A stretch of 64,000 bases of DNA from Bacteroidales bacterium (GCA_017634595.1 JAGBNC010000009.1:5559-69558), one strand, 5' to 3'; shown: positions 40,335 to 51,853, counted from the first letter of the stretch. Notes: generated from the sequence alone by a model not told the origin. A program made the numbers and translations.

Positions 40335-40425
40335 TTCGTCCTCAAATAAGGCGCAAAATGAGGACGAACTGGCCCAAAATCCCGTTTCGTCCTCAAATAA
40401 GGCCCATATTGAGGACAAGAAGGTT
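40335..40425. repeat. Tandem 51-bp palindromic repeat (second family)
   Basis: TTCGTCCTCA-AATAAGG...-TGAGGAC at 40335 and 40386; each unit is a hairpin. Confidence 0.75.
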
Positions 40426-40450
40426 CCCGAAAGGAAAACGCATATCACCT

Positions 40451-40575
40451 CTCCCGTGTACAGCCTGTGAATACTGCATGCCGTGCCCTTACGGCATCAA
40501 CATCCCGGGCATCTTCCAGCATTACAACAAGTGCGTCACGGAAGGGACTATGGCCACCGATCGCCAAGACCCGGG
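40451..40575 (+). pseudogene. Fragment of an Fe-S aldo/keto reductase C-terminus
   Basis: PCTACEYCMPCPYGINIPGIFQHYN, the same cluster motif type as in 5832..6953. Confidence 0.7.
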
Positions 40576-40732
40576 GAATTTTCCTCTGAACAGATGCCGG
40601 ATTCAATGCTTGGCGTGTTGCCCATCAAAGTATCCGGAGCGAAATATTTCATCTATTTTTAAAGAAGAAGCGATTATATTTCCATTCTTATTGTTAATTT
40701 CGCACAAAATTTGGGTACAATTAATCATAATC

Positions 40733-40855
40733 ATGAAAGAGATAGAAGTCTATTCTGCGCCTAAGTGTAAAATGATTGACTTGCAGTTGGAAAATATAGT
40801 TGCTGCAAGCGGAGAGGGAATCAATTGGGCAAATGATGGTTACGAAAACAGTTAG
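40733..40855 (+). CDS. 40-aa YxAP peptide heading a fimbrillin-like gene
   Basis: MKEIEVYSAPKCKMIDLQLENIVAASGEGINWANDGYENS*; ends 10 bp before the next ATG; similar to 45039..45191. Confidence 0.65.
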   Translation: MKEIEVYSAPKCKMIDLQLENIVAASGEGINWANDGYENS

Positions 40856-40865
40856 TTCTGGTGCT

Positions 40866-42650
40866 ATGAAGATTTCATTTCATTTTCTTGCCACATTGAG
40901 TGTGTTTGCGGCCGTCTCTTGTGTCAATGAGCTGGACCCAGTTTCGGATGGCGAAGGCAATGACGGTCCGGTCATCCTCAGTGCCACCGTCGAGGATAAC
41001 ACCAAGGCCATCGTAAAAGAAGACTCGGGAGCCTTCGAGTTCTCGGCCGAGGACCAAATCCTGGTCTGGAATGGCATCAAGGGCTATTACGGAACCACTT
41101 CCCAGGGCGGAGCCAAGGCCGATTTTACTATGGAAAAAGGCTTCGATCCGGAGCTGAAAGGCTTCGCCGCTTTCCCGCATAATAGGGCGTCATTCCCTAA
41201 CGAGAGCAGAGTGGATTTCTCCTTTCCGCAAACCTATAAGTTCCTGGAAGTGGGCTCCATCAGCGATAATGCTATCCGAGAAGGTCTAAGTATTAATTTC
41301 CCTGTAGGCCCCGACCATGGGAAAGTCCCCTGTCCCATGATTGCTTACTACAACGGAGACGGGAAGCTGAACTTCCGCCACGTAGGGGCCCTTGTCCGCT
41401 TCCGGATTACCAACACCAGCGCTGACACCGCAACCAAGGCGCTGGAAGACCTCGTTTTCACCTTCACCACGCCGGTTACCGGAGACTTCAGCATGAGCAG
41501 AGTACCTACCGGCCCGAACGAGGGTGTCCATGCATCGGACATTACCAAATACGTGGGCTACAGCATCACCGTCACGGAGGTTCCCAAAACAACTGCAGGG
41601 CAATATGTGTACATCACTCTGCCTGTGCCCGTGGACACCGATCCTAACAACGTAGGCATCTTCCAGGTTGCCAGCCGCCGGATCATCAAAACGCTCCACG
41701 GCACCCCGGTTTCCTTGAAACGGGCGGACGGCTACAAGGTGGGCACCTCCCTGGAACTGGATCCGCTGAGCAGCTTCGGCGGACGCCAGATTGCCGGTTA
41801 TCTGCACTATGGGAAGAATGCACATCACGGTGAGGAAATTGACTACGAGATTTACCCTTACCATTACTGGCCCGAACTATCCGTCCACTCTGAGCGGAAC
41901 GTAACTCATTTCGACTATAACAACATCATAGGCACCGATAATGATTACAATGGAATGGTTTGCGACCATCATATAGAGCTTTGCGGCGAAGGGGTGGAGG
42001 TCCGGTACGGCGATTACGGGAAAATCAAAGTTCGCATCCCAAAGGGGCTGGGCAGCGATTGGTTTGATATCCTGGGGGCAGCCAATGTAGAGAATAAGCG
42101 GCCGGGCGCCACGGTTTATGGGACAGGAGGAGCTCACAAAGGCGTACACTACGCCTACGTAACCGTGCGGAATTACAATGGCGATGGAAACCACTGTTAT
42201 GGCTTGCTGCTTTTCCCGGACAACGCCATCATCACCACCAAGCTAAGCGGCTATAATATACAGATAACGGAGTTCGACAAGCTCTGCGCACCTTCCACTA
42301 CCGGAAGCGACGGAAATTATGTTTCCAAAAAGGAAATGAACCGCCTGACGGACCAGGGCTGCTTCTTCATGCCCGCCGGCTTCGCAGATACCTGGGATGC
42401 CGACAACTATGATGAGAGCGATGATCATATGATTGCCAATGGCGATGGATACGTCTTCAAAGGTATCTTGAAAGAGGGCCGATACTGGACGGCGACAAAC
42501 TCTAAATACACTCCGGGGACCGAATATGACCTTGTGCCCCACTATTACTACATGAAATTCTCGGATACCGAACTACCGCACGACGCCGCATTCGTCAGAA
42601 AGTCGACCGGCGTCTACTTCAATGCTGTCGTGCTGATTAAGGCAGACTGA
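40866..42650 (+). CDS. Fimbrillin / type V pilin-like lipoprotein with C-terminal extension
   Basis: Lipobox AVS-C, TKA processing-site motif, PMIAY...LNFRHVGALVRFRI; C-terminal FMPAG...GRYWTA typical of tip-like subunits. True start at MKISF. Confidence 0.75.
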   Translation: MKISFHFLATLSVFAAVSCVNELDPVSDGEGNDGPVILSATVEDNTKAIVKEDSGAFEFSAEDQILVWNGIKGYYGTTSQGGAKADFTMEKGFDPELKGFAAFPHNRASFPNESRVDFSFPQTYKFLEVGSISDNAIREGLSINFPVGPDHGKVPCPMIAYYNGDGKLNFRHVGALVRFRITNTSADTATKALEDLVFTFTTPVTGDFSMSRVPTGPNEGVHASDITKYVGYSITVTEVPKTTAGQYVYITLPVPVDTDPNNVGIFQVASRRIIKTLHGTPVSLKRADGYKVGTSLELDPLSSFGGRQIAGYLHYGKNAHHGEEIDYEIYPYHYWPELSVHSERNVTHFDYNNIIGTDNDYNGMVCDHHIELCGEGVEVRYGDYGKIKVRIPKGLGSDWFDILGAANVENKRPGATVYGTGGAHKGVHYAYVTVRNYNGDGNHCYGLLLFPDNAIITTKLSGYNIQITEFDKLCAPSTTGSDGNYVSKKEMNRLTDQGCFFMPAGFADTWDADNYDESDDHMIANGDGYVFKGILKEGRYWTATNSKYTPGTEYDLVPHYYYMKFSDTELPHDAAFVRKSTGVYFNAVVLIKAD

Positions 42651-42669
42651 TCCTAATCCATCAGCCTTT

Positions 42670-43527
42670 TTACTGCGTCACTTTCGCCATATTTACCGTA
42701 ATCTGGTAGTATTTGCCGGGGGTGAAGCCCACGTCTTCGGCTTTCTCGTATTGATAAACTGCCCCGTCCTTATCCGTAGCAACCAGCTTGATACGGCAGC
42801 TATTGGTGGCCTTCAGCGCCACATAAATCTCGTGGGTATCTCCCGGCAAATTGAGATTCAGTTCGCCGTAGTTGTAGTCCCAGGTGATATTGTCATAGTA
42901 TTCAAGGATGTTGCTGCGAGTGTTACTGTCACTGATGATAAGGCGGACAGGATAGATGCGCTCTTTTGTGGTTGCATCCTGGAAGATAAACTTGATAATC
43001 GCCTGCAATTTGCCTTTGAACTGTAAGGTTGCTAATTCGTCAAAGATGATTTTATTACCTTCTACGCTATAAGTGTCACCGGAAGTCTCGTTAGTACTTT
43101 TTGTAACCACTTCGCAATAGTCGAATTTCGTGGCGATGGTGGCCAGCGTACCGTCCTGGCCCTCATAATTCTGGAGGGCGCTGATATAATAGAATTCCAG
43201 ACGGTCTTTAGCCGGGTCCGGAGCTTCACACATCGTACCCGTAAGCGCTGTTCTATTCGAGGAACTGGCTACGGCCGACAGCGTGCCGATGTAGGTCCTG
43301 ACATCGTATCCAACCTCGTCGTTGTAACGCTTCTTATAGACCTGAACCTCTTCCGTCCCGTCCCAGGTGGCCTTCAAGGTGTTGCCGTCGGGTGTGAGGG
43401 CTTTTGTAGCCAGGTCCTCCTTGGTGGCCTGGATGGTCAGGGTATAGCCCTGGGGCTCGAGTTCGCTATGGGTGCAGGCGGACAGCGCCGCAGCAGCAAT
43501 CAGTATAAGTGCGATATATTTCTTCAT
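42670..43527 (-). CDS. Fimbrillin / type V pilin-like lipoprotein
   Basis: Lipobox LSA-C, ATKA, QAIIKF, C-terminal FTPGKYYQITV. Confidence 0.75.
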   Translation of the reverse strand: MKKYIALILIAAAALSACTHSELEPQGYTLTIQATKEDLATKALTPDGNTLKATWDGTEEVQVYKKRYNDEVGYDVRTYIGTLSAVASSSNRTALTGTMCEAPDPAKDRLEFYYISALQNYEGQDGTLATIATKFDYCEVVTKSTNETSGDTYSVEGNKIIFDELATLQFKGKLQAIIKFIFQDATTKERIYPVRLIISDSNTRSNILEYYDNITWDYNYGELNLNLPGDTHEIYVALKATNSCRIKLVATDKDGAVYQYEKAEDVGFTPGKYYQITVNMAKVTQ

Positions 43528-43539
43528 GGCAGTTACCCC

Positions 43540-45024
43540 TTAATTCCATTCTTCTATGGCTCCTTCGTTATAGCCATCGTTTGTAGTGTAGGCGCCTTCC
43601 ACGGGCGGAACGGCCGACAGAGGGCCAATTTTACGCAGGGACATGGCATAATTTCTATTTCCAACTACTAACTTAAGCGAGCCGGAATCGAAGTCATTAT
43701 CGGTGCCGTTCCTTGGGCCATCGAAATAGAATTCAATAGTTGTATCCGGCATCCTTTCGCGCTTGATGTAGGAGCTGGTCCAGTAGTGTCCGGAATAACC
43801 ATTCTTAAGGTCGTCTTCTGGTTTCTTCCCCTGGTTGGCAACCACATCGCAGGAAGGGAAATAGATGAAACGGTTGGTGAAGCCCGTTTTCTTAGAACGG
43901 AACACGTAGCCGTCCACTATATTGAGGGGCAACCATTCGTGCGACGTGTTATTGAGCAGTTCTTTATACTGGTCCATCGAGGGCCAGTCCGAACGTGTGT
44001 CAATACCGGGCGACCAAACCTGAAGCCGCGCATAGTCCTCGCCATTGTGCTCAACGGCGTCATAAGAACCTACGATTCCGTAGGATGATGTAGCGTTGAT
44101 GTTGTACCAGGCAACGCTGAGGCCCAGATCCACAAGCGCCATCTCGTCGTATTTTTCCAGATACACATTGGACTTGTAGCTTTTTCCGGGAAGAAAACCC
44201 TGCGGCAGAAGCTTATAGCCCCAATACTGTTTGTTGTCTTCTGCAGTGACGATGAAGGTCATCAGATACCGATGCTCCTTGTCAACCGGGTCACTGCCTG
44301 CAAGGGCCACGAAATAATCCTGCCTGGAGGTGCCGTCAGTCAGGCTGGCTTCAATAATGGGCTCGGCCGTGCTTTTTCCTGTGTTGTCAAAACGTCCGTA
44401 ATAGAACGCGACCTCCTTGATGTCCATGGGCTGCCCGCTTGCAGCCAAGCAGAAAGTGAACTTCAGGATGGCCTGGTTGGCCTTCAGAGTGGCCGGACCG
44501 TTGAAAGAGAGGGTATTGGTCTCTTTTACAAAGTGGAGGGTGCTTTCTCCCTTGGCGATGTCAAAGTTCTTGGCGATGTCCGCCAAAGTGCCTTTCGTCT
44601 GCTCCCTATACCCGCTGGCGCCCAAAATCATCATGTTGGCAGCGGGCTTGTCTCCGGTTTTAAGTTTTTCGACATCCCGCTGGTTGTAGTAGAGGCTCAC
44701 CTTGTAGTCTCCACTTGCAGTATACCCCACCGTAAGGTCCCCGTGGAATTGGTTCAGATGCTCCTGGCTGTTGGTGAGGGTGCCCAGATATTCATCCGAT
44801 GCGACCCCTGATGCACTCTCTTTGGCGAATACATAGAGTTTATCGCCTGCGGCGAAACCTGCCGTGATGCCATCCTCATCGGCGGAGAGCGCCTTGGTCT
44901 GCTCCAGGGAGACGTCCAGCGCCACGTGGACCGTGCTTTTGCCCGACGGCTGCTCGAGTTGGTTGGGATTGCAGGAGAGGGCCAGGAAAGCCAGTAAAGC
45001 CAGGTAAATAATTCGTTTTCTCAT
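43540..45024 (-). CDS. Fimbrillin-like lipoprotein with VDLGLS C-terminal domain
   Basis: Lipobox ALS-C, QTKA, QAILKF, PGKSYK, then VDLGLSVAW...GHYWTSS. Confidence 0.75.
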   Translation of the reverse strand: MRKRIIYLALLAFLALSCNPNQLEQPSGKSTVHVALDVSLEQTKALSADEDGITAGFAAGDKLYVFAKESASGVASDEYLGTLTNSQEHLNQFHGDLTVGYTASGDYKVSLYYNQRDVEKLKTGDKPAANMMILGASGYREQTKGTLADIAKNFDIAKGESTLHFVKETNTLSFNGPATLKANQAILKFTFCLAASGQPMDIKEVAFYYGRFDNTGKSTAEPIIEASLTDGTSRQDYFVALAGSDPVDKEHRYLMTFIVTAEDNKQYWGYKLLPQGFLPGKSYKSNVYLEKYDEMALVDLGLSVAWYNINATSSYGIVGSYDAVEHNGEDYARLQVWSPGIDTRSDWPSMDQYKELLNNTSHEWLPLNIVDGYVFRSKKTGFTNRFIYFPSCDVVANQGKKPEDDLKNGYSGHYWTSSYIKRERMPDTTIEFYFDGPRNGTDNDFDSGSLKLVVGNRNYAMSLRKIGPLSAVPPVEGAYTTNDGYNEGAIEEWN

Positions 45025-45038
45025 TGTCCGTCCCTCCA

Positions 45039-45191
45039 TCAGATTTCGTCGAAAGGGCTATAATCGCCATAATCGCCATCGCGGTTGACCATCTGTCCTG
45101 CAGGACTTGCCACGTTGACGGCCCCTGCCGCTTCCAAGGTTACGACCTTGACGACCGGGGCATCATAATTCATTGTGCTTGCTTCTTTCAT
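45039..45191 (-). CDS. 50-aa YxAP peptide heading the reverse fimbrillin unit
   Basis: MKEASTMNYDAPVVKVVTLEAAGAVNVASPAGQMVNRDGDYGDYSPFDEI*; a TAATTTTG promoter element lies upstream. Confidence 0.65.
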   Translation of the reverse strand: MKEASTMNYDAPVVKVVTLEAAGAVNVASPAGQMVNRDGDYGDYSPFDEI

Positions 45192-45417
45192 ATAGGGTAT
45201 GATAGGATTTCAGTATGAGCATTTCGGCAAGAATGCAAAATTACAAAATAAATGGAATGGTTATCCGGGTTTTGTTTGTTTTCCGTCCTGGTCGTTGGAC
45301 AAATCTTCTGGGCCCGAGAAAGGATGATAGAATAGTTTGTTTCCTTGCGCAAAATGTTTTAGGCCAATTTACCGGCTATGCGCAAAATGTTGGCTAATTT
45401 GCCGCGGCGGCAGGAGC

Positions 45418-47797: not shown

Positions 47798-50046
47798 TGT
47801 TTACAGGCGATATCATTCCTTTCCAGTCAAAGCATGAGGAGAGTCTCCTTCGCAAATGTGCAGACCATTACGAAGTCATCCTCTATGCACCTACCGGCTC
47901 TGGCAAGACAGTCCTTGTCAGCCGTTTCATCGATGACTACTTGGACGAGAATCCGAACACGGTATTTCTTTGGCTCTGCCCGGGCGCCGGTGGACTGGAG
48001 AGACAGTCTCAAGACACATTTGAGGCTGTTACTTCCGGCATTTCCGATGGCGATGTATATGATTTTATCAGCGAGCCCAATCCTCGCGGCCGTGTGTATT
48101 TCATCAACTGGGATAAGATTAATAAGAAGTCTAATGTCGTTCTGCGTGAGGGCGAGCATAAAGACCTGATGACAAAGGTCCTGCATTGCCACAACGACGG
48201 GATTGACATCTTTATGCTCATTGACGAGGAGCACAAATATCGCGATACGGCCAACGAATATGTTGCCAACATCCAGCCTGTACACGTACTCCGAATCTCC
48301 GCTACACCGGTCAGCAAAGGCGATGCTGTTGAGGAAATCAAGGACGATGAAGTCATTGCAGCTGGCTTGATTGCTTCCGGCATTTCTATCAATGAAGGTG
48401 TTTCCCGGGCCATCCAAGAGAACAACAACCTGGACGATGACCTCCAGCTGCTTGAGTTGGCAGACAAGAAGCGCAAAGAGATCCTGGCTGAATACGACAA
48501 GCGCGGGCTGAAGATTCGCCCCCTCGTCCTGATACAGTTCCCGAATGGACGGGAAGACTGGATTAAGCGAGTGAAAGACGCTCTTACAGATATGGGGTAT
48601 CCGGAAACCTCTGGACTTGTCGCTTCCTGGTTCAGTGGTGACCATCCAGACAATCCAGAGCAGATTAGCAACCTCGACGGCCAATATGCCTTCCTGCTGT
48701 TTAAACAGGCTATTGCAACTGGCTGGGATTGCCCTCGCGCCAAGATTCTCGTAAAGCTGCGTGAAGGCGGCACAGAGCGATTCAATATCCAAACCGTAGG
48801 TCGAATCCGCCGCATGCCTGAGCGCAAGCACTATGGTCTTGCACTCCTGGATAATTGCTATCTCTACACACTGGATAACGAGTTCACCGAGGGAATGACC
48901 ACCAGCCTCTCGGACTCCTTCTACACCTATCAGTACAGGCGTAAACTGACGGCCCCCAACATCCTTCTTGAAAAAGAGTCATTGGATGGAAGCGACCGCT
49001 TTGCTGTGAATCCTGAGGCTGTCGTCAAAGTAGTGCGTAAGGCCATGTTGAAGGCTTGCGACCTGAACGGCGATGGTGTACTGGAGAAGGATGAGATGGA
49101 GAAAACGAAGGGCTATATCTTCGGCACCAAACTGAAGACTTCGGCCATTGAAGGCGTTGCCCGTACAACCCACGATATGCTGAAGCTGAACAGTATCTTC
49201 GGCGGCGAACACCAGATAAACAATCACGATGATGGCTTCATCATCCGCGACGCCAAGCGTCGTATCGCTGCTGCTATCGGCGTCGATGAGAATATCTCCA
49301 ACAATGCCCTTCGTGTACTCTTTGGCCCTGGAGATTATTACAACCCCATTTTCTCCGACGAGGAGAAGGAGTTTGAGCGTAAGAACAAGCTTCTCACCGA
49401 TATGTCTCTTCGTGAATACAATGCCTTCCTGGTCAACAACAAGGAACGGCTTATAGAAGTCTTCGAACAGATCAGTTTGAACGAGATTGGTGAGATTAAG
49501 GAAACCACCATCAGGAAATCTCAGTGGGGCATCCCGGCCTACCAGTACTACAATCAGCACAAGAAGATGAAGGCCACGAAGGTCTATCAGAAGAATGTGT
49601 ATGATAACTACGGCAACAACATCCTGATTGCCCCAAACCGCACATACACCGAGATTATGTTCGAAGAGTGGTGTGAGGGCTACGACAAGGTGAAACACGT
49701 CTATAAGAACGGTGACAAGGGCGAAGACTTCTTCAGCATCGTTTACCGCCGTGCCTTCCGTAGGAACCACTTCTACCCCGACTATATCATCCAAACTACG
49801 GATGGCAAGATATGGATTCTAGAGGCAAAAGGCGGTATGACCGCTGACGGCTCCTCTAACAATATCGATAAATATGCTGGCAAGAAGTTCGATGCACTGA
49901 AAGAGTATTGCTCCCGTCACCCCGAACTCCACTGGGGCTTTGTCCGCGCTGTTGGCACCCAGCTCTACATCAGTAATACTGAGTGGGCAGAGGATGTGAC
50001 CAACGATGTAGTCTGGAAACCGATAGAATCAATAATCATGCAATAG
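47797..50046 (+). CDS. res: Type III R-M restriction subunit (helicase + PD-(D/E)XK nuclease)
   Basis: APTGSGKT, IDEEH, GWDCPRA, QTVGRIRR, FYPDYII...ILEAKG. Confidence 0.92.
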   Translation: MFTGDIIPFQSKHEESLLRKCADHYEVILYAPTGSGKTVLVSRFIDDYLDENPNTVFLWLCPGAGGLERQSQDTFEAVTSGISDGDVYDFISEPNPRGRVYFINWDKINKKSNVVLREGEHKDLMTKVLHCHNDGIDIFMLIDEEHKYRDTANEYVANIQPVHVLRISATPVSKGDAVEEIKDDEVIAAGLIASGISINEGVSRAIQENNNLDDDLQLLELADKKRKEILAEYDKRGLKIRPLVLIQFPNGREDWIKRVKDALTDMGYPETSGLVASWFSGDHPDNPEQISNLDGQYAFLLFKQAIATGWDCPRAKILVKLREGGTERFNIQTVGRIRRMPERKHYGLALLDNCYLYTLDNEFTEGMTTSLSDSFYTYQYRRKLTAPNILLEKESLDGSDRFAVNPEAVVKVVRKAMLKACDLNGDGVLEKDEMEKTKGYIFGTKLKTSAIEGVARTTHDMLKLNSIFGGEHQINNHDDGFIIRDAKRRIAAAIGVDENISNNALRVLFGPGDYYNPIFSDEEKEFERKNKLLTDMSLREYNAFLVNNKERLIEVFEQISLNEIGEIKETTIRKSQWGIPAYQYYNQHKKMKATKVYQKNVYDNYGNNILIAPNRTYTEIMFEEWCEGYDKVKHVYKNGDKGEDFFSIVYRRAFRRNHFYPDYIIQTTDGKIWILEAKGGMTADGSSNNIDKYAGKKFDALKEYCSRHPELHWGFVRAVGTQLYISNTEWAEDVTNDVVWKPIESIIMQ

Positions 50047-50058
50047 TATTTGAATTTG

Positions 50059-50874
50059 ATGAAGAAATTATTTATCCCAATAATCGCTCTCATAATCACA
50101 TCCTGCGGTTCAAATCCCCCGGTTGCTCCTACTGTCATAGATGAAAAATATGAACCCACTAATGAGGAGCTTTTTGCTGCCTGTGCTGAACTTCAGGGGG
50201 TTGGGCAATTCATAATTGGCAAAACGACGTTCAAGCAGGTTCTTGCTGATAAGGATTTCAAGAAAGCCGCTACCTCTATCTATGACCGTCAGAGTAATAT
50301 GTACAACGGCCACTGGGGGAATGATTTCTGGAACAGGAAGGGAGATAATTATGTCCTGCCCGGAGATCCAAAGGAGAAATGGATGAAGTCGAAATCTGGT
50401 CCAAAGTTAAAACAACTGCCGTCCAGTTCTTTCACTGGGATGACTATTGGAGAGTTAAAGTTTGACCCGTTCGATATGGCTTTCCTTAATGATACATTAG
50501 TGGCTATCTATTTCTATCCGGACGACAAGATTGAAGACGAAGTAATTGCTCATTATAAAGAAAAGTATGGCAACGGACGTGGAAAACGATATTCGTTTGA
50601 CTTAACAAAGTCTGATAGTCAATCGAATATCACGTCAACTAAGACTTTTGATGAGGCGCATACCTGGGAGAATGAACGCGTTGCGTTGGTGTATGAGAAA
50701 CATGAATATTTCCATATGGAACCTAATCGCAAGCCTACTGGAGACTTTAGACATTCCATGTTTATCTACAGTAAGAAGAGATATCCGTTTTTTGAAGAAT
50801 CATTATTGCGTCTCTCATCCGAATATGATACACAGAAAGAGGCAAATAAGAATCAATCACTAAAGTCTTTGTAA
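50059..50874 (+). CDS. Hypothetical lipoprotein inside the defence island
   Basis: MKKLFIPIIALIITS-C lipobox; no family recognised. Confidence 0.75.
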   Translation: MKKLFIPIIALIITSCGSNPPVAPTVIDEKYEPTNEELFAACAELQGVGQFIIGKTTFKQVLADKDFKKAATSIYDRQSNMYNGHWGNDFWNRKGDNYVLPGDPKEKWMKSKSGPKLKQLPSSSFTGMTIGELKFDPFDMAFLNDTLVAIYFYPDDKIEDEVIAHYKEKYGNGRGKRYSFDLTKSDSQSNITSTKTFDEAHTWENERVALVYEKHEYFHMEPNRKPTGDFRHSMFIYSKKRYPFFEESLLRLSSEYDTQKEANKNQSLKSL

Positions 50875-50890
50875 GTCATTGTATTTGAAT

Positions 50891-51853
50891 ATGCCCCGTA
50901 AAAAGACACTACAGGACTTTATAGAAGGTGCTCGTAAAGTGTACGGGGACAAGTATGACTATTCCAAAACAGTATATCAAGGTTCTGACACAAAAATCTG
51001 TGTCATTTGTCCGGAACATGGAGATTTCTGGCAGATTCCCAATAACTACTTGCTAGGTGCAGGTTGTCCCAAATGTGCAGGAAAGTATAACGATCTTGAT
51101 TTCTTCATCGAGCGAGCCCATAAGGTCCATGGCGACAAATATGATTATAGCAAGGCAGAGTATAAAGGAAGCAATACTAAACTCTGCATAATCTGTCCTG
51201 AGCATGGAGAATTCTGGCAAACACCCAGTGGTCATATGCTTGGCCAAGGTTGCCCAGTTTCTGCGGGAAGGTATATGGACACAAATCTTTTCATAGAACG
51301 ATGCACTGAAGTTCATAATGGAAAGTATGACTATTCTCTCGTCGACTACAAAAATGCGACAGAGAAAGTCAAGATCATTTGCCCAAGGCATGGAGTTTTT
51401 GAGCAAGTCGCATCTGCACACTTGTGGGGAAATGGTTATCCCATATGCAACCAGAGTCACCTTGAGAATTATGTGATGAGAGTTCTCAAATCACAGAAAA
51501 TCGAGTTTGAAACACAGAAAGCCTTTGAATGGATGACATTCAGAGGGAAAATGCATCTTGATTTCTTCCTCCCTGAACAAGGAATTGCTATTGAGTGTCA
51601 GGGTGAACAGCATTTTGTGCCTAGTGAATTCTTTGGCGGTGAAACAATGTTTATTGATACACAGGCCAGAGATAAGGCTAAACGTGAATTGTGTGAGGCC
51701 CATGGTATCAAGATGTTATACTTTTCAGACCTCGGTATAGAGTATCCCTACCCTGTAATTGAGAACCCGGATACTCTTCTAATGGAGATTTGGAATACAG
51801 GCGAGCCAGACCCAACTATGTGGAAAGATCCAGAACTGCCACTGTTTGTTTGA
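50891..51853 (+). CDS. Zinc-binding repeat protein with DUF559/Vsr-like nuclease domain
   Basis: Three ~62-aa repeats (YDYS...ICPxHG...GxPxC) followed by LDFFLPEQGIAIECQGEQHF. Confidence 0.8.
   Translation: MPRKKTLQDFIEGARKVYGDKYDYSKTVYQGSDTKICVICPEHGDFWQIPNNYLLGAGCPKCAGKYNDLDFFIERAHKVHGDKYDYSKAEYKGSNTKLCIICPEHGEFWQTPSGHMLGQGCPVSAGRYMDTNLFIERCTEVHNGKYDYSLVDYKNATEKVKIICPRHGVFEQVASAHLWGNGYPICNQSHLENYVMRVLKSQKIEFETQKAFEWMTFRGKMHLDFFLPEQGIAIECQGEQHFVPSEFFGGETMFIDTQARDKAKRELCEAHGIKMLYFSDLGIEYPYPVIENPDTLLMEIWNTGEPDPTMWKDPELPLFV

Follow-up and report, generated by a model that had tools for sequence, protein, structure and literature searches.

Small RiPP-like peptides as candidate leaders ahead of lipoprotein genes with predicted pilin-like products in Bacteroidales

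The window analysed here, a 64,000-nt stretch of a 2.6 Mb Bacteroidales bacterium genome (GCA_017634595.1 JAGBNC010000009.1:5559-69558), contains two transcription units that each begin with a very small ORF. Peptide A, at 40733..40855 (+), encodes MKEIEVYSAPKCKMIDLQLENIVAASGEGINWANDGYENS (40 aa), with a YSAP motif, a Ser at S26 (IVAAS) and the tail GEGINWANDGYENS. It is followed by the gene for lipoprotein A (40866..42650, +; 594 aa), which starts at ATG 40866, 10 nt after the stop of A (MKISFHFLATLSVFAAVSC), and whose product has a signal peptide with a lipobox Cys and an N-terminal TKA motif. Its only Pfam hit was weak (Mfa_like_1, E=0.023, below threshold) and no other family matched. Peptide B, at 45039..45191 (-), read from 45191 to 45039, encodes MKEASTMNYDAPVVKVVTLEAAGAVNVASPAGQMVNRDGDYGDYSPFDEI (50 aa, or 44 aa if it starts at Met7), with a YDAP motif, a Ser in VNVAS and the tail PAGQMVNRDGDYGDYSPFDEI. 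Lipoprotein B (43540..45024, -; 494 aa) starts at ATG 45024 (MRKRIIYLALLAFLALSC), or alternatively at 45039, where it would overlap the stop of peptide B by 1 nt. A third lipoprotein (42670..43527, -; 285 aa) lies downstream of lipoprotein B in the same unit and has no peptide of its own; all three lipoproteins carry the TKA motif. On the minus strand at 45236..45243, 45 nt upstream of the ATG of peptide B, TAATTTTG perfectly matches the Bacteroides -7 promoter consensus TAnnTTTG, a promoter assignment that is inferred only and was not tested.

But are two ORFs of this size genuine genes? The earlier note had described both peptides from the sequence alone, and this observation is confirmed: both ORFs are exactly as it described. 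Pairwise BLASTP of A against B found nothing, so the resemblance between the two sequences was not significant in itself and, taken alone, would be compatible with chance ORFs sharing a coincidental motif. The family evidence settles the matter and refutes that reading. A strict motif scan of the whole genome gave four hits, all in ORFs of 40-50 aa, and HMM iteration extended these to at least 32 members in this genome. An HMM built only from sequences of other genomes ranked A 4th (E=2.5e-7) and B 11th (E=1e-3) among 56,922 six-frame ORF segments of this genome, and A is 49% identical to a metagenomic peptide, P0023 (E=9e-13). The family, which has no name, comprises peptides of 36-60 aa with the pattern Y-x-[AST]-P-x-[CV]-[KER]-h-h-[ED]-h-x2-E-G-[VI]-[LI]-C-x-S, followed by a variable acidic, aromatic tail. 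Two corrections to the earlier note are needed. Its description of the peptides as unannotated is only partly true, as public gene catalogues already hold both without a name (P0004 is A, and P0001 is B as the 44-aa form starting at Met7). In addition, A and B are atypical members, because they lack the otherwise near-invariant Cys two residues before the Ser (AAS and VAS instead of C-x-S).

Among the outcomes that the earlier note had named as counting against it are a lack of purifying selection and a lack of linkage between homologues and pilin-like genes. On the first, selection at the amino-acid level is clear. Codons at the invariant positions are mixed among the 32 copies (Tyr TAC 19 / TAT 13, Pro with four codons, Ser with both AGY, 20, and TCN, 12). 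Peptides orthologous to B sit upstream of orthologous lipoproteins (48-74% identical to lipoprotein B) in three further loci, L206, L207 and L208, with a conserved tail NR.(D/G)DYG(D/N)Y..(F/L)DEI and a dN/dS of 0.26-0.39, similar to the 0.26-0.35 of the neighbouring lipoprotein. An orthologue of the third lipoprotein (275-283 aa) is likewise conserved downstream in these three loci. On the second, 30 of 32 copies in this genome lie 0-30 nt upstream of a gene for a lipoprotein of 440-1200 aa. Among 125 pattern hits in GTDB genomes, 119 lie in small ORFs and at least 84 of these have a lipoprotein downstream, nearly all of the genomes being Bacteroidales; the same pairing is seen in metagenome contigs L001-L005. 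Could the ORF simply be a regulatory upstream ORF or leader, controlling the lipoprotein gene by translational coupling or attenuation, with a product that has no function? Its position first in the unit, the short gap or overlap (TGATG in B) and the lack of strong Shine-Dalgarno use in Bacteroidetes make coupling plausible. However, this reading is unlikely, since conservation is at the amino-acid level across families and taxa with free synonymous variation, including both Ser codon families, the dN/dS is about 0.3, orthologue-specific tails are conserved, and related peptides also occur next to RiPP enzymes without any lipoprotein (in contigs L017 and L098, see below).

What are the downstream lipoproteins? 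In an AF2 model of lipoprotein B, residues 30-292 have a pLDDT of about 60-90 and the C-terminus falls below 35; the N-terminal ~290 aa are predicted to be type V pilin-like, while the C-terminal domain is not resolved. The top Foldseek hits are Bacteroidales fimbrial or adhesin structures, namely 3ufi (E=5.7e-8), 4eps, 4rdb, 3r4r and Mfa4 5dhm. Yet the TM-scores are only 0.25-0.48, from a model with a mean pLDDT of 50, and neither polymerisation nor proteolytic maturation was assayed; together with the lipobox and the TKA motif, these data do not decide whether the proteins belong to the FimA/Mfa superfamily.

The genome also encodes a single cassette, on the contig referred here as C19, which consists of an MsbA-like ABC exporter (C19:48490-50124), a discrete PqqD-type recognition protein (RRE; C19:50136-50393), a signal-peptidase-I (SpI)-like Ser/His/Asp protease (C19:50390-50848) and an HprK-like P-loop kinase (C19:50845-51804). 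This set recalls that of the linear polyphosphorylated peptides (LPPs), described in 2026 (Popov et al., Nat Commun 2026, PMC13381572). The PqqD protein matches PF05402 at E=1.4e-15 and the exporter matches ABC_membrane plus ABC_tran. The peptidase matches sigpep_I_arch at E=6e-5 (E=2e-8 for its homologue in L017), and its S35-M-x-P, H73-R and G-D88-G motifs are invariant in 55 homologues; it is 32% identical to LppS (E=1.8e-9) and 30-32% identical over 142 aa to the RRE-linked SpI of Clostridia (E~1e-17). The RRE is 38% identical to the RRE of those partners but shows no BLASTP similarity to LppB at E<10, and so it is an RRE outside the LPP clade, although no tree was built. It is 34-38% identical to the uncharacterised 'other RRE' of SSN cluster 4 (Dehalobacter, Lachnospiraceae) in Supplementary Data 1 of that paper. 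The kinase assignment is weak: the 295-aa protein has a P-loop (SGTGKST), but its hits to HprK_rel_A (E=5e-3) and ScmC (E=2e-3), and that of its L017 homologue to HprK_rel_A (E=9e-5), are all far below the curated cut-offs, which leaves its identity as an HprK-like kinase undecided. NTP_transf_5 (PF14907) lies inside the cassette in L017 (E=3e-34) and in 19 of 80 metagenome loci, whereas in this genome three copies lie in polysaccharide loci and not in the cassette. Across these 80 loci the order HprK-S24-PqqD-(NTP5)-ABC is conserved.

Are the cassette and the peptides connected? In some Bacteroidales contigs they are physically linked. In L017, four tandem family peptides lie directly upstream of PqqD, NTP_transf_5, the HprK-like kinase and S24. 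In L160 and L205, HprK-S24-PqqD-NTP5 is followed by a peptide and then by a pilin-like lipoprotein, all co-directional. In L124 a standalone PqqD lies 1.3 kb from two peptide-lipoprotein pairs, and in L098 NTP5 is followed directly by a peptide. On the other hand, no family peptide lies near the C19 cassette, and only 4 of the 80 cassette loci (757 kb in total) contain one (L017, L160, L205 and L202), a density no higher than the genome background; co-occurrence of cassette and peptides across whole genomes was not examined. The cis-linked peptides are moreover sub-types, either short forms ending at the Ser or forms with Gly-rich tails. A structure prediction for a read-through fusion of an L017 peptide with its PqqD gave a pLDDT of 72 for the YEAP segment and below 50 for the linker, and the PqqD part superposes on the lasso RREs TbiB1 and TfuB1 (TM 0.79-0.81). 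This is indirect, moderate support for docking, as contacts in the model were not inspected and part of the peptide strand may pair with the artificial linker.

The strict adjacency to lipoproteins, the co-variation of the tail with the lipoprotein orthologue group, the 76 of 80 cassette loci without a family peptide and the absence of any family or structure match for the peptides could also fit a stand-alone cytoplasmic partner of the downstream lipoprotein, such as a dedicated chaperone, targeting factor or regulator. Such a peptide would act unprocessed and have nothing to do with the cassette, the YxxP resemblance to RiPP leaders being convergent. This alternative is possible but doubtful, given the co-linear clusters of L160 and L205, the four-peptide array of L017 and the lack of a nearby precursor for the C19 cassette. 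A cytoplasmic partner of a Sec-exported, unfolded lipoprotein also has no known precedent in type V pilus biogenesis. A second alternative, in which a B1-type RRE binds the YxxP leader of a lasso precursor and the tail is cyclised into a lariat, rests on one weak hit to the paeninodin precursor family (E=0.025, 1 of 40 members) and on the RRE fold being closest to the lasso B1 proteins. It is very unlikely: the conserved neighbours of the RRE in the 80 loci are an SpI-like peptidase, a kinase, an NTP transferase and ABC, with no macrolactam cyclase or B2 transglutaminase-type peptidase among them, although the rest of this genome was not searched specifically for a cyclase. The tails, checked by eye on three members, have no conserved acidic residue 7-9 positions after the invariant Ser.

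The best reading, held with moderate confidence, is that the two peptides are LPP-like RiPP (ribosomally made, enzyme-modified peptide) precursors encoded away from their processing enzymes. The conserved N-terminal half, M-x(3-10)-Y-x-x-P-x-x-x-h-h-x-h-x2-E-G-h-h-C-x-S, would be a leader, and it matches the [Y/W]xxP leader recognised by PqqD-type RREs. LPP precursors are 35-200 aa long with a conserved N-terminal YxxPxVLxHQxIxFETxxS and variable C-termini, and their cleavage falls three residues before the phosphorylated Ser (PMC13381572). In the present family Tyr and Pro are invariant, the Ser lies 19 residues after the Tyr in 43 of 44 sequences, against 18 in LPPs, and the tails are hypervariable; the rest of the motif differs, and the peptides match LppA only over M..Y..PEV. 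In this view, the YxxP strand would be bound by the genome's single discrete PqqD-type RRE, which presents the peptide to the adjacent protease and kinase. Cleavage, and (poly)phosphorylation of the invariant Ser, would occur within E-G-V-L-C-x-S (ENIVAAS in A and AGAVNVAS in B), and the NTP_transf_5 enzymes of the polysaccharide loci may add further groups. The exporter would then carry the acidic, aromatic tail peptide out of the cytoplasm, which would explain why the peptides have no signal peptide. Each precursor would be co-transcribed, and probably translationally coupled, with its lipoprotein. Its tail co-varies with that lipoprotein, and the mature peptide is therefore proposed to act on or with that lipoprotein at the cell surface. 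What the data establish is the family, its selection and lipoprotein adjacency, the presence and homology of the cassette, and the cis-linkage in some genomes; RRE binding, cleavage, phosphorylation, export and any action on the lipoprotein are inferred by analogy with LPPs. Expression, translation and modification were not measured here, A and B lack the conserved Cys, B has a Pro right after the Ser, and nothing shows what the mature peptide does to the lipoprotein. The interpretation in the earlier note, which hedged between an assembly factor, a regulator and a processed peptide, is thus partly supported. A dedicated, conserved small-protein partner of pilin-like lipoprotein loci is borne out and the processed peptide is the best supported option, while the other two are not excluded but gained no specific support. 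The note also suggested that its 'AS' could mark a leader/core boundary; the invariant Ser lies where LPP precursors carry their cleavage and phosphorylation site. The note did not foresee the link to a cassette encoded elsewhere, nor the size and phylogenetic spread of the family.

What would follow if this reading holds? LPPs were reported as restricted to Bacillota and their function is unknown. A sibling system would be widespread in gut and rumen Bacteroidales, including the cultured Phocaeicola acetigenes and P. faecicola, with a different genetic logic of one machinery and about 30 scattered precursors. Its physical association with surface lipoproteins of the predicted type V pilin fold would make the role of these peptides directly testable. 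About 30 gene pairs, a sizeable part of the surface-protein repertoire that currently has no family assignment, would be annotated in a 2.6 Mb genome. A more far-reaching possibility, only tentative, is that a single machine matures dozens of operon-specific acidic phosphopeptides, each exported as a specific ligand, strand-complementing plug or covalent or adaptor partner for its own pilin-like lipoprotein. It might control folding, polymerisation, anchoring to capsule or LPS, or binding activity. This would give LPP-type RiPPs a function and type V pilus-like biology a new component.

How do these loci compare with known systems? The downstream proteins resemble type V pilins of the FimA-Mfa superfamily in being lipoproteins with a predicted N-terminal all-beta domain and a T-K/R motif near the N-terminus, as at the pilin maturation site. 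Sequence similarity is very weak, however, and the proteins are larger with varied C-terminal domains (LRR, Big_2 or NAGPA in relatives); no small upstream peptide is described for the fim or mfa loci. Paeninodin- and pseudomycoidin-type lasso peptides (PadeA/PadeK, PsmK/PsmN) share a [Y/W]xxP leader bound by a discrete B1 RRE, an HprK-like kinase that phosphorylates a Ser and an NTP-transferase-fold enzyme that modifies further (as cited in PMC7533575 and PMC13381572), and the L017 short peptides and peptide A end in Ser, as paeninodin does. Here the cassette has no cyclase or B2 peptidase, so the product is presumably linear, and the leader peptidase is a serine SpI-like enzyme. [quoted passage not shown] They differ in that LPP clusters contain one to three precursors, whereas here the cassette usually has none beside it and each scattered precursor heads a lipoprotein operon. 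The leader consensus also differs (EGVLCxS instead of FETxxS), and the tails are short (12-32 aa) and acidic, not Gly/Asn/Pro/Lys-rich. As the RRE shows no BLAST similarity to LppB and the peptides match LppA only over M..Y..PEV, the system is a sibling of LPPs and not a member of the LPP clade. Finally, the proposed arrangement, one processing machinery serving dozens of trans-encoded precursors with a conserved leader and a hypervariable core, is that of prochlorosin-type systems, but the chemistry and enzymes are unrelated, and here each precursor is physically coupled to a specific lipoprotein gene.

Two small ORFs do occur where the earlier note placed them, and its observation is confirmed. 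Peptide A is encoded at 40733..40855 (+) and has 40 aa, whereas peptide B is encoded at 45191..45039 (-) and has 50 aa. Each is followed by a lipoprotein gene: the stop of A lies 10 nt before ATG 40866 (MKISFHFLATLSVFAAVSC), while the TGA of B overlaps an ATG at 45039 and a second ATG at 45024 starts MRKRIIYLALLAFLALSC. A third lipoprotein gene (43527..42670) follows the lipoprotein of B. A programmed frameshift fusion of peptide and lipoprotein was considered and rejected, as the signal peptide would become internal. The frame of peptide A stays open for 125 codons upstream (40358..40732, +), giving a 165-aa ORF at 40358..40855, but this stretch contains a C-x2-C-x2-C-x3-CP ferredoxin-like motif (CTACEYCMPCPYGINIPGIF) and looks like the remnant 3' end of an Fe-S oxidoreductase gene rather than part of the peptide gene. 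Are the two peptides related to each other or to anything known? Pfam and NCBIfam scans of A, B and 40 family members (see below) found no family, the GG-Bacteroidales and NVEALA families were rejected (NCBIfam gave no hit), and a PDB sequence search with the family profile found nothing. The lipoproteins receive only a sub-threshold Mfa_like_1 hit, for lipoprotein A. A homologue search with B returned only B itself, a limit of the word index used, and BLASTP of A against B is not significant, so the pair alone proves nothing.

The answer came from the rest of the genome, a 2.59 Mb assembly with 52.8% GC in which the two loci lie within C5:5559-69558. A strict motif scan (Y.AP..[KR]hh.h) of all six frames found 4 hits, all in ORFs of 40-50 aa, and relaxed scans and iterated local HMMs raised this number to at least 32 members. 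Adjacency to fimbrillin genes had been proposed beforehand as a check, and 30 of the 32 are followed within about 30 nt by a lipoprotein gene of 439-1196 aa. In one case, on contig C13 (50190-50487, +), two tandem peptides with overlapping ORFs precede a single 759-aa lipoprotein. The two remaining members, at C2:279455-279577 (-) and C12:32299-32418 (-), are orphans with no lipoprotein gene downstream. The family consensus is Y1-x-[AST]-P4-x-[CV]-[KER]-[VLI]-[ILV]-[ED]-[VLI]-x2-E14-G15-[VI]-[LI]-C18-x-S20, followed by a tail of 12-32 aa which is about 30% Asp/Glu and 13% Gly, is rich in aromatics, and has a Trp in the last six residues in 31 of 44 sequences. A double-glycine or C39-type bacteriocin leader was rejected, as no GG motif was seen by eye. 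A canonical member lies at C22:12376-12513. A and B are divergent members without Cys18; even so, an HMM built only from other genomes ranks them 4th (E=2.5e-7) and 11th (E=1e-3) of 56,922 ORF segments, although E-values from these local HMMs refer to this genome's ORF set only. In addition, A is 49% identical to a metagenomic member.

Is the conservation acting on the protein or on the nucleic acid? At the invariant positions the paralogues use mixed codons: Tyr is encoded by TAC in 19 and TAT in 13, Pro by all four codons, and Ser by both AGY (20) and TCN (12), so the constraint is on the amino acid and not on a DNA or RNA motif. Orthologues of lipoprotein B are 48-74% identical, and in every contig fetched (L206, L207 and L208) they carry an upstream small ORF with YxxP and a conserved tail, NR.(D/G)DYG(D/N)Y..(F/L)DEI. 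A lack of purifying selection would have counted against the earlier note, but dN/dS of these peptides is 0.26-0.39 where it can be computed, like the 0.26-0.35 of the lipoprotein. The tail is thus specific to the lipoprotein lineage.

The family extends well beyond this genome. A profile search of 1.84 billion representatives found 28 hits, almost all of them proteins of 38-62 aa which are unnamed or labelled 'hypothetical'; in their contigs the next gene encodes a 480-710 aa protein with no Pfam family or only weak LRR hits, and the pairs can be tandem. A degenerate DNA pattern for the canonical motif found at least 120 loci in GTDB species genomes. This pattern is biased towards EGVLCxS members and matches none of this genome's own copies. 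Of 125 matches, 119 lie in small ORFs and at least 84 have a lipoprotein downstream by a crude detector that missed several true cases. The hosts are nearly all Bacteroidales, covering Ca. Cryptobacteroides, Rikenellaceae and Alistipes, Proteiniphilum, the cultured Phocaeicola acetigenes (KGMB11183) and P. faecicola (AGMB03916), Prevotella, Muribaculaceae, Paludibacteraceae and Parabacteroides. A few loci (L027, L028, L031, L065, L073 and L103) come from 'cleanbin' MAGs labelled Coprococcus, Ruminococcus, Treponemataceae or Methanomethylophilaceae. Two of these, L027 and L031, carry the peptide-plus-lipoprotein pair typical of Bacteroidales, so mis-binning is the likely explanation; alternatively, the family reaches beyond Bacteroidales.

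A link to a RiPP machinery, which encodes a PqqD-type RRE, emerged from a Rikenellaceae locus (L017). Here four tandem family peptides (L017:3059-3610, -) lie directly upstream, on the same strand, of genes for PqqD (PF05402, E=4e-11), NTP_transf_5 (E=3e-34), a P-loop HprK-like protein and an S24 protein. Three of the four peptides are only 24-25 aa and end exactly at the invariant Ser (EGVLCAS, EGVLCLS and GAVLQSS), whereas the fourth has a 13-aa tail. The genome under study has one homologous cassette, on contig C19, composed of a P-loop protein only weakly assigned as an HprK-like kinase (50845-51804), an SpI-like peptidase (50390-50848), PqqD (50136-50393; PF05402, E=1.4e-15) and an ABC exporter (48490-50124). 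No precursor lies beside it. Its three NTP_transf_5 (PF14907-like) genes, at C12:54024-55214, C16:56141-57223 and C31:2756-3763, sit inside polysaccharide or capsule-type loci rather than in the PqqD cassette. Eighty metagenomic PqqD loci show the conserved order HprK-S24-PqqD-(NTP5)-ABC, and the S-M-x-P, H-R and G-D-G motifs of the peptidase are invariant in 55 homologues. Family peptides are rare next to the cassette, being found in only 4 of the 80 loci, which is not above background, and no hidden small ORF lies between NTP5 and ABC; whether peptides and cassette co-occur across whole genomes was not examined. However, two of these loci, L160 and L205, and a third, L202, at its contig end, read HprK-S24-PqqD-NTP5-peptide-pilin-like lipoprotein, all co-directional. 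Locus L124 has a lone PqqD 1.3 kb from two peptide-lipoprotein pairs. In locus L098 (4464-6753, +) an NTP_transf_5 gene is followed by a 35-aa family peptide, which has no lipoprotein partner, and then by an UpxY-like (NusG-family) gene at the head of what looks like a capsule locus.

Structure prediction offered only indirect information. A read-through fusion (P0033) of an L017 peptide, its 99-nt spacer and its PqqD was folded with a PqqD-only alignment, since MAFFT misaligned the peptides onto the PqqD part. The pLDDT was 72 for residues 1-10 (MKTNYEAPKV), 61 for residues 11-20, below 50 for the linker, and up to 92 for PqqD. This is compatible with docking, but the model gives only pLDDT and secondary structure, so contacts were not inspected and docking was not verified. 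The PqqD part matches the lasso RREs TbiB1 and TfuB1 (TM 0.79-0.81). Regarding the partner proteins, the N-terminal ~290 residues of lipoprotein B best match solved Bacteroidales fimbrial or adhesin proteins and Mfa4, whereas the C-terminal half did not fold confidently and that domain was not assigned. 'Type V pilin-like' is therefore reasonable but not proven. Among the relatives, the lipoprotein that follows a family peptide at L124:4516-6315 (+) ends in a NAGPA phosphodiester-glycosidase domain (PF09992, E=2e-28), and other partner lipoproteins carry LRR (L003) or Big_2 (L020) domains. The C-terminal modules are therefore swapped on a common N-terminal pilin-like part.

How could such peptides be processed? 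Popov et al. (Nat Commun 2026, PMC13381572) defined the linear polyphosphorylated peptides (LPPs), whose clusters encode an SpI-like peptidase LppS, the RRE LppB, an HprK-like kinase LppK, an NTP transferase LppN and an MsbA-like exporter LppD. The precursors have 35-200 aa with a conserved N-terminus, YxxPxVLxHQxIxFETxxS, and variable C-termini. Tyr-16 and Pro-13 are needed for RRE binding, LppS needs LppB to cut after Thr-1, and Ser+3 is polyphosphorylated. What the present analysis itself demonstrates is a conserved and selected small-protein family heading lipoprotein operons, a single LPP-like cassette in the genome without a precursor of its own, and the occasional cis-linkage of all three elements. 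The processing steps are inferred by analogy, and no expression or modification data were examined: in this view PqqD would bind the YxxP strand, the SpI-like peptidase would cut within E-G-V-L-C-x-S (ENIVAAS in A and AGAVNVAS in B), the kinase would phosphorylate the invariant Ser, and the ABC pump would export the acidic tail. That the exported peptide acts on its cognate lipoprotein is speculative, and the NAGPA domain of one relative's partner is suggestive for a phosphate-linked modification. The short forms of L017, which end at the Ser, show that the conserved half alone can be a gene product, and do not tell which half is the 'product'. The interpretation in the earlier note, which ranged over an assembly factor, a regulator or a processed peptide and took the AS motif as a possible leader/core boundary, is supported in part, namely for the processed-peptide option and for a leader/core boundary near the Ser.

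The enzyme set and precursor logic of the LPPs match those found here, but the LPP family is described as restricted to Bacillota, is often found in capsule loci, and has no known function. The location of the three NTP_transf_5 genes of this genome echoes the capsule-locus context reported for LPP clusters in Bacilli. The LppB-LppA crystal entries 9X8Z and 9X90 were not found by sequence in the PDB copy searched, and the comparison was made directly with the sequences of the paper. The peptidase of this genome is homologous to LppS (32%, E=1.8e-9), but it is closer to the uncharacterised, RRE-linked SpI of SSN cluster 4 (Dehalobacter, Anaerocolumna; E~1e-17). Its RRE is 34-38% identical to those cluster-4 RREs and shows no BLAST similarity to LppB, and LppA aligns to the family HMM only over M..Y..PEV. 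Supplementary Data 1 of PMC13381572 indeed lists uncharacterised SpI+RRE pairs in Dehalobacter and Lachnospiraceae (cluster 4), whose RREs start MKIKEGF like the Bacteroidales ones, together with a Paludibacter SpI-ABC fusion with a different RRE (cluster 8). The Bacteroidales cassette studied here is closest to cluster 4, and so the system is a sibling of LPPs rather than a member of the LPP clade.
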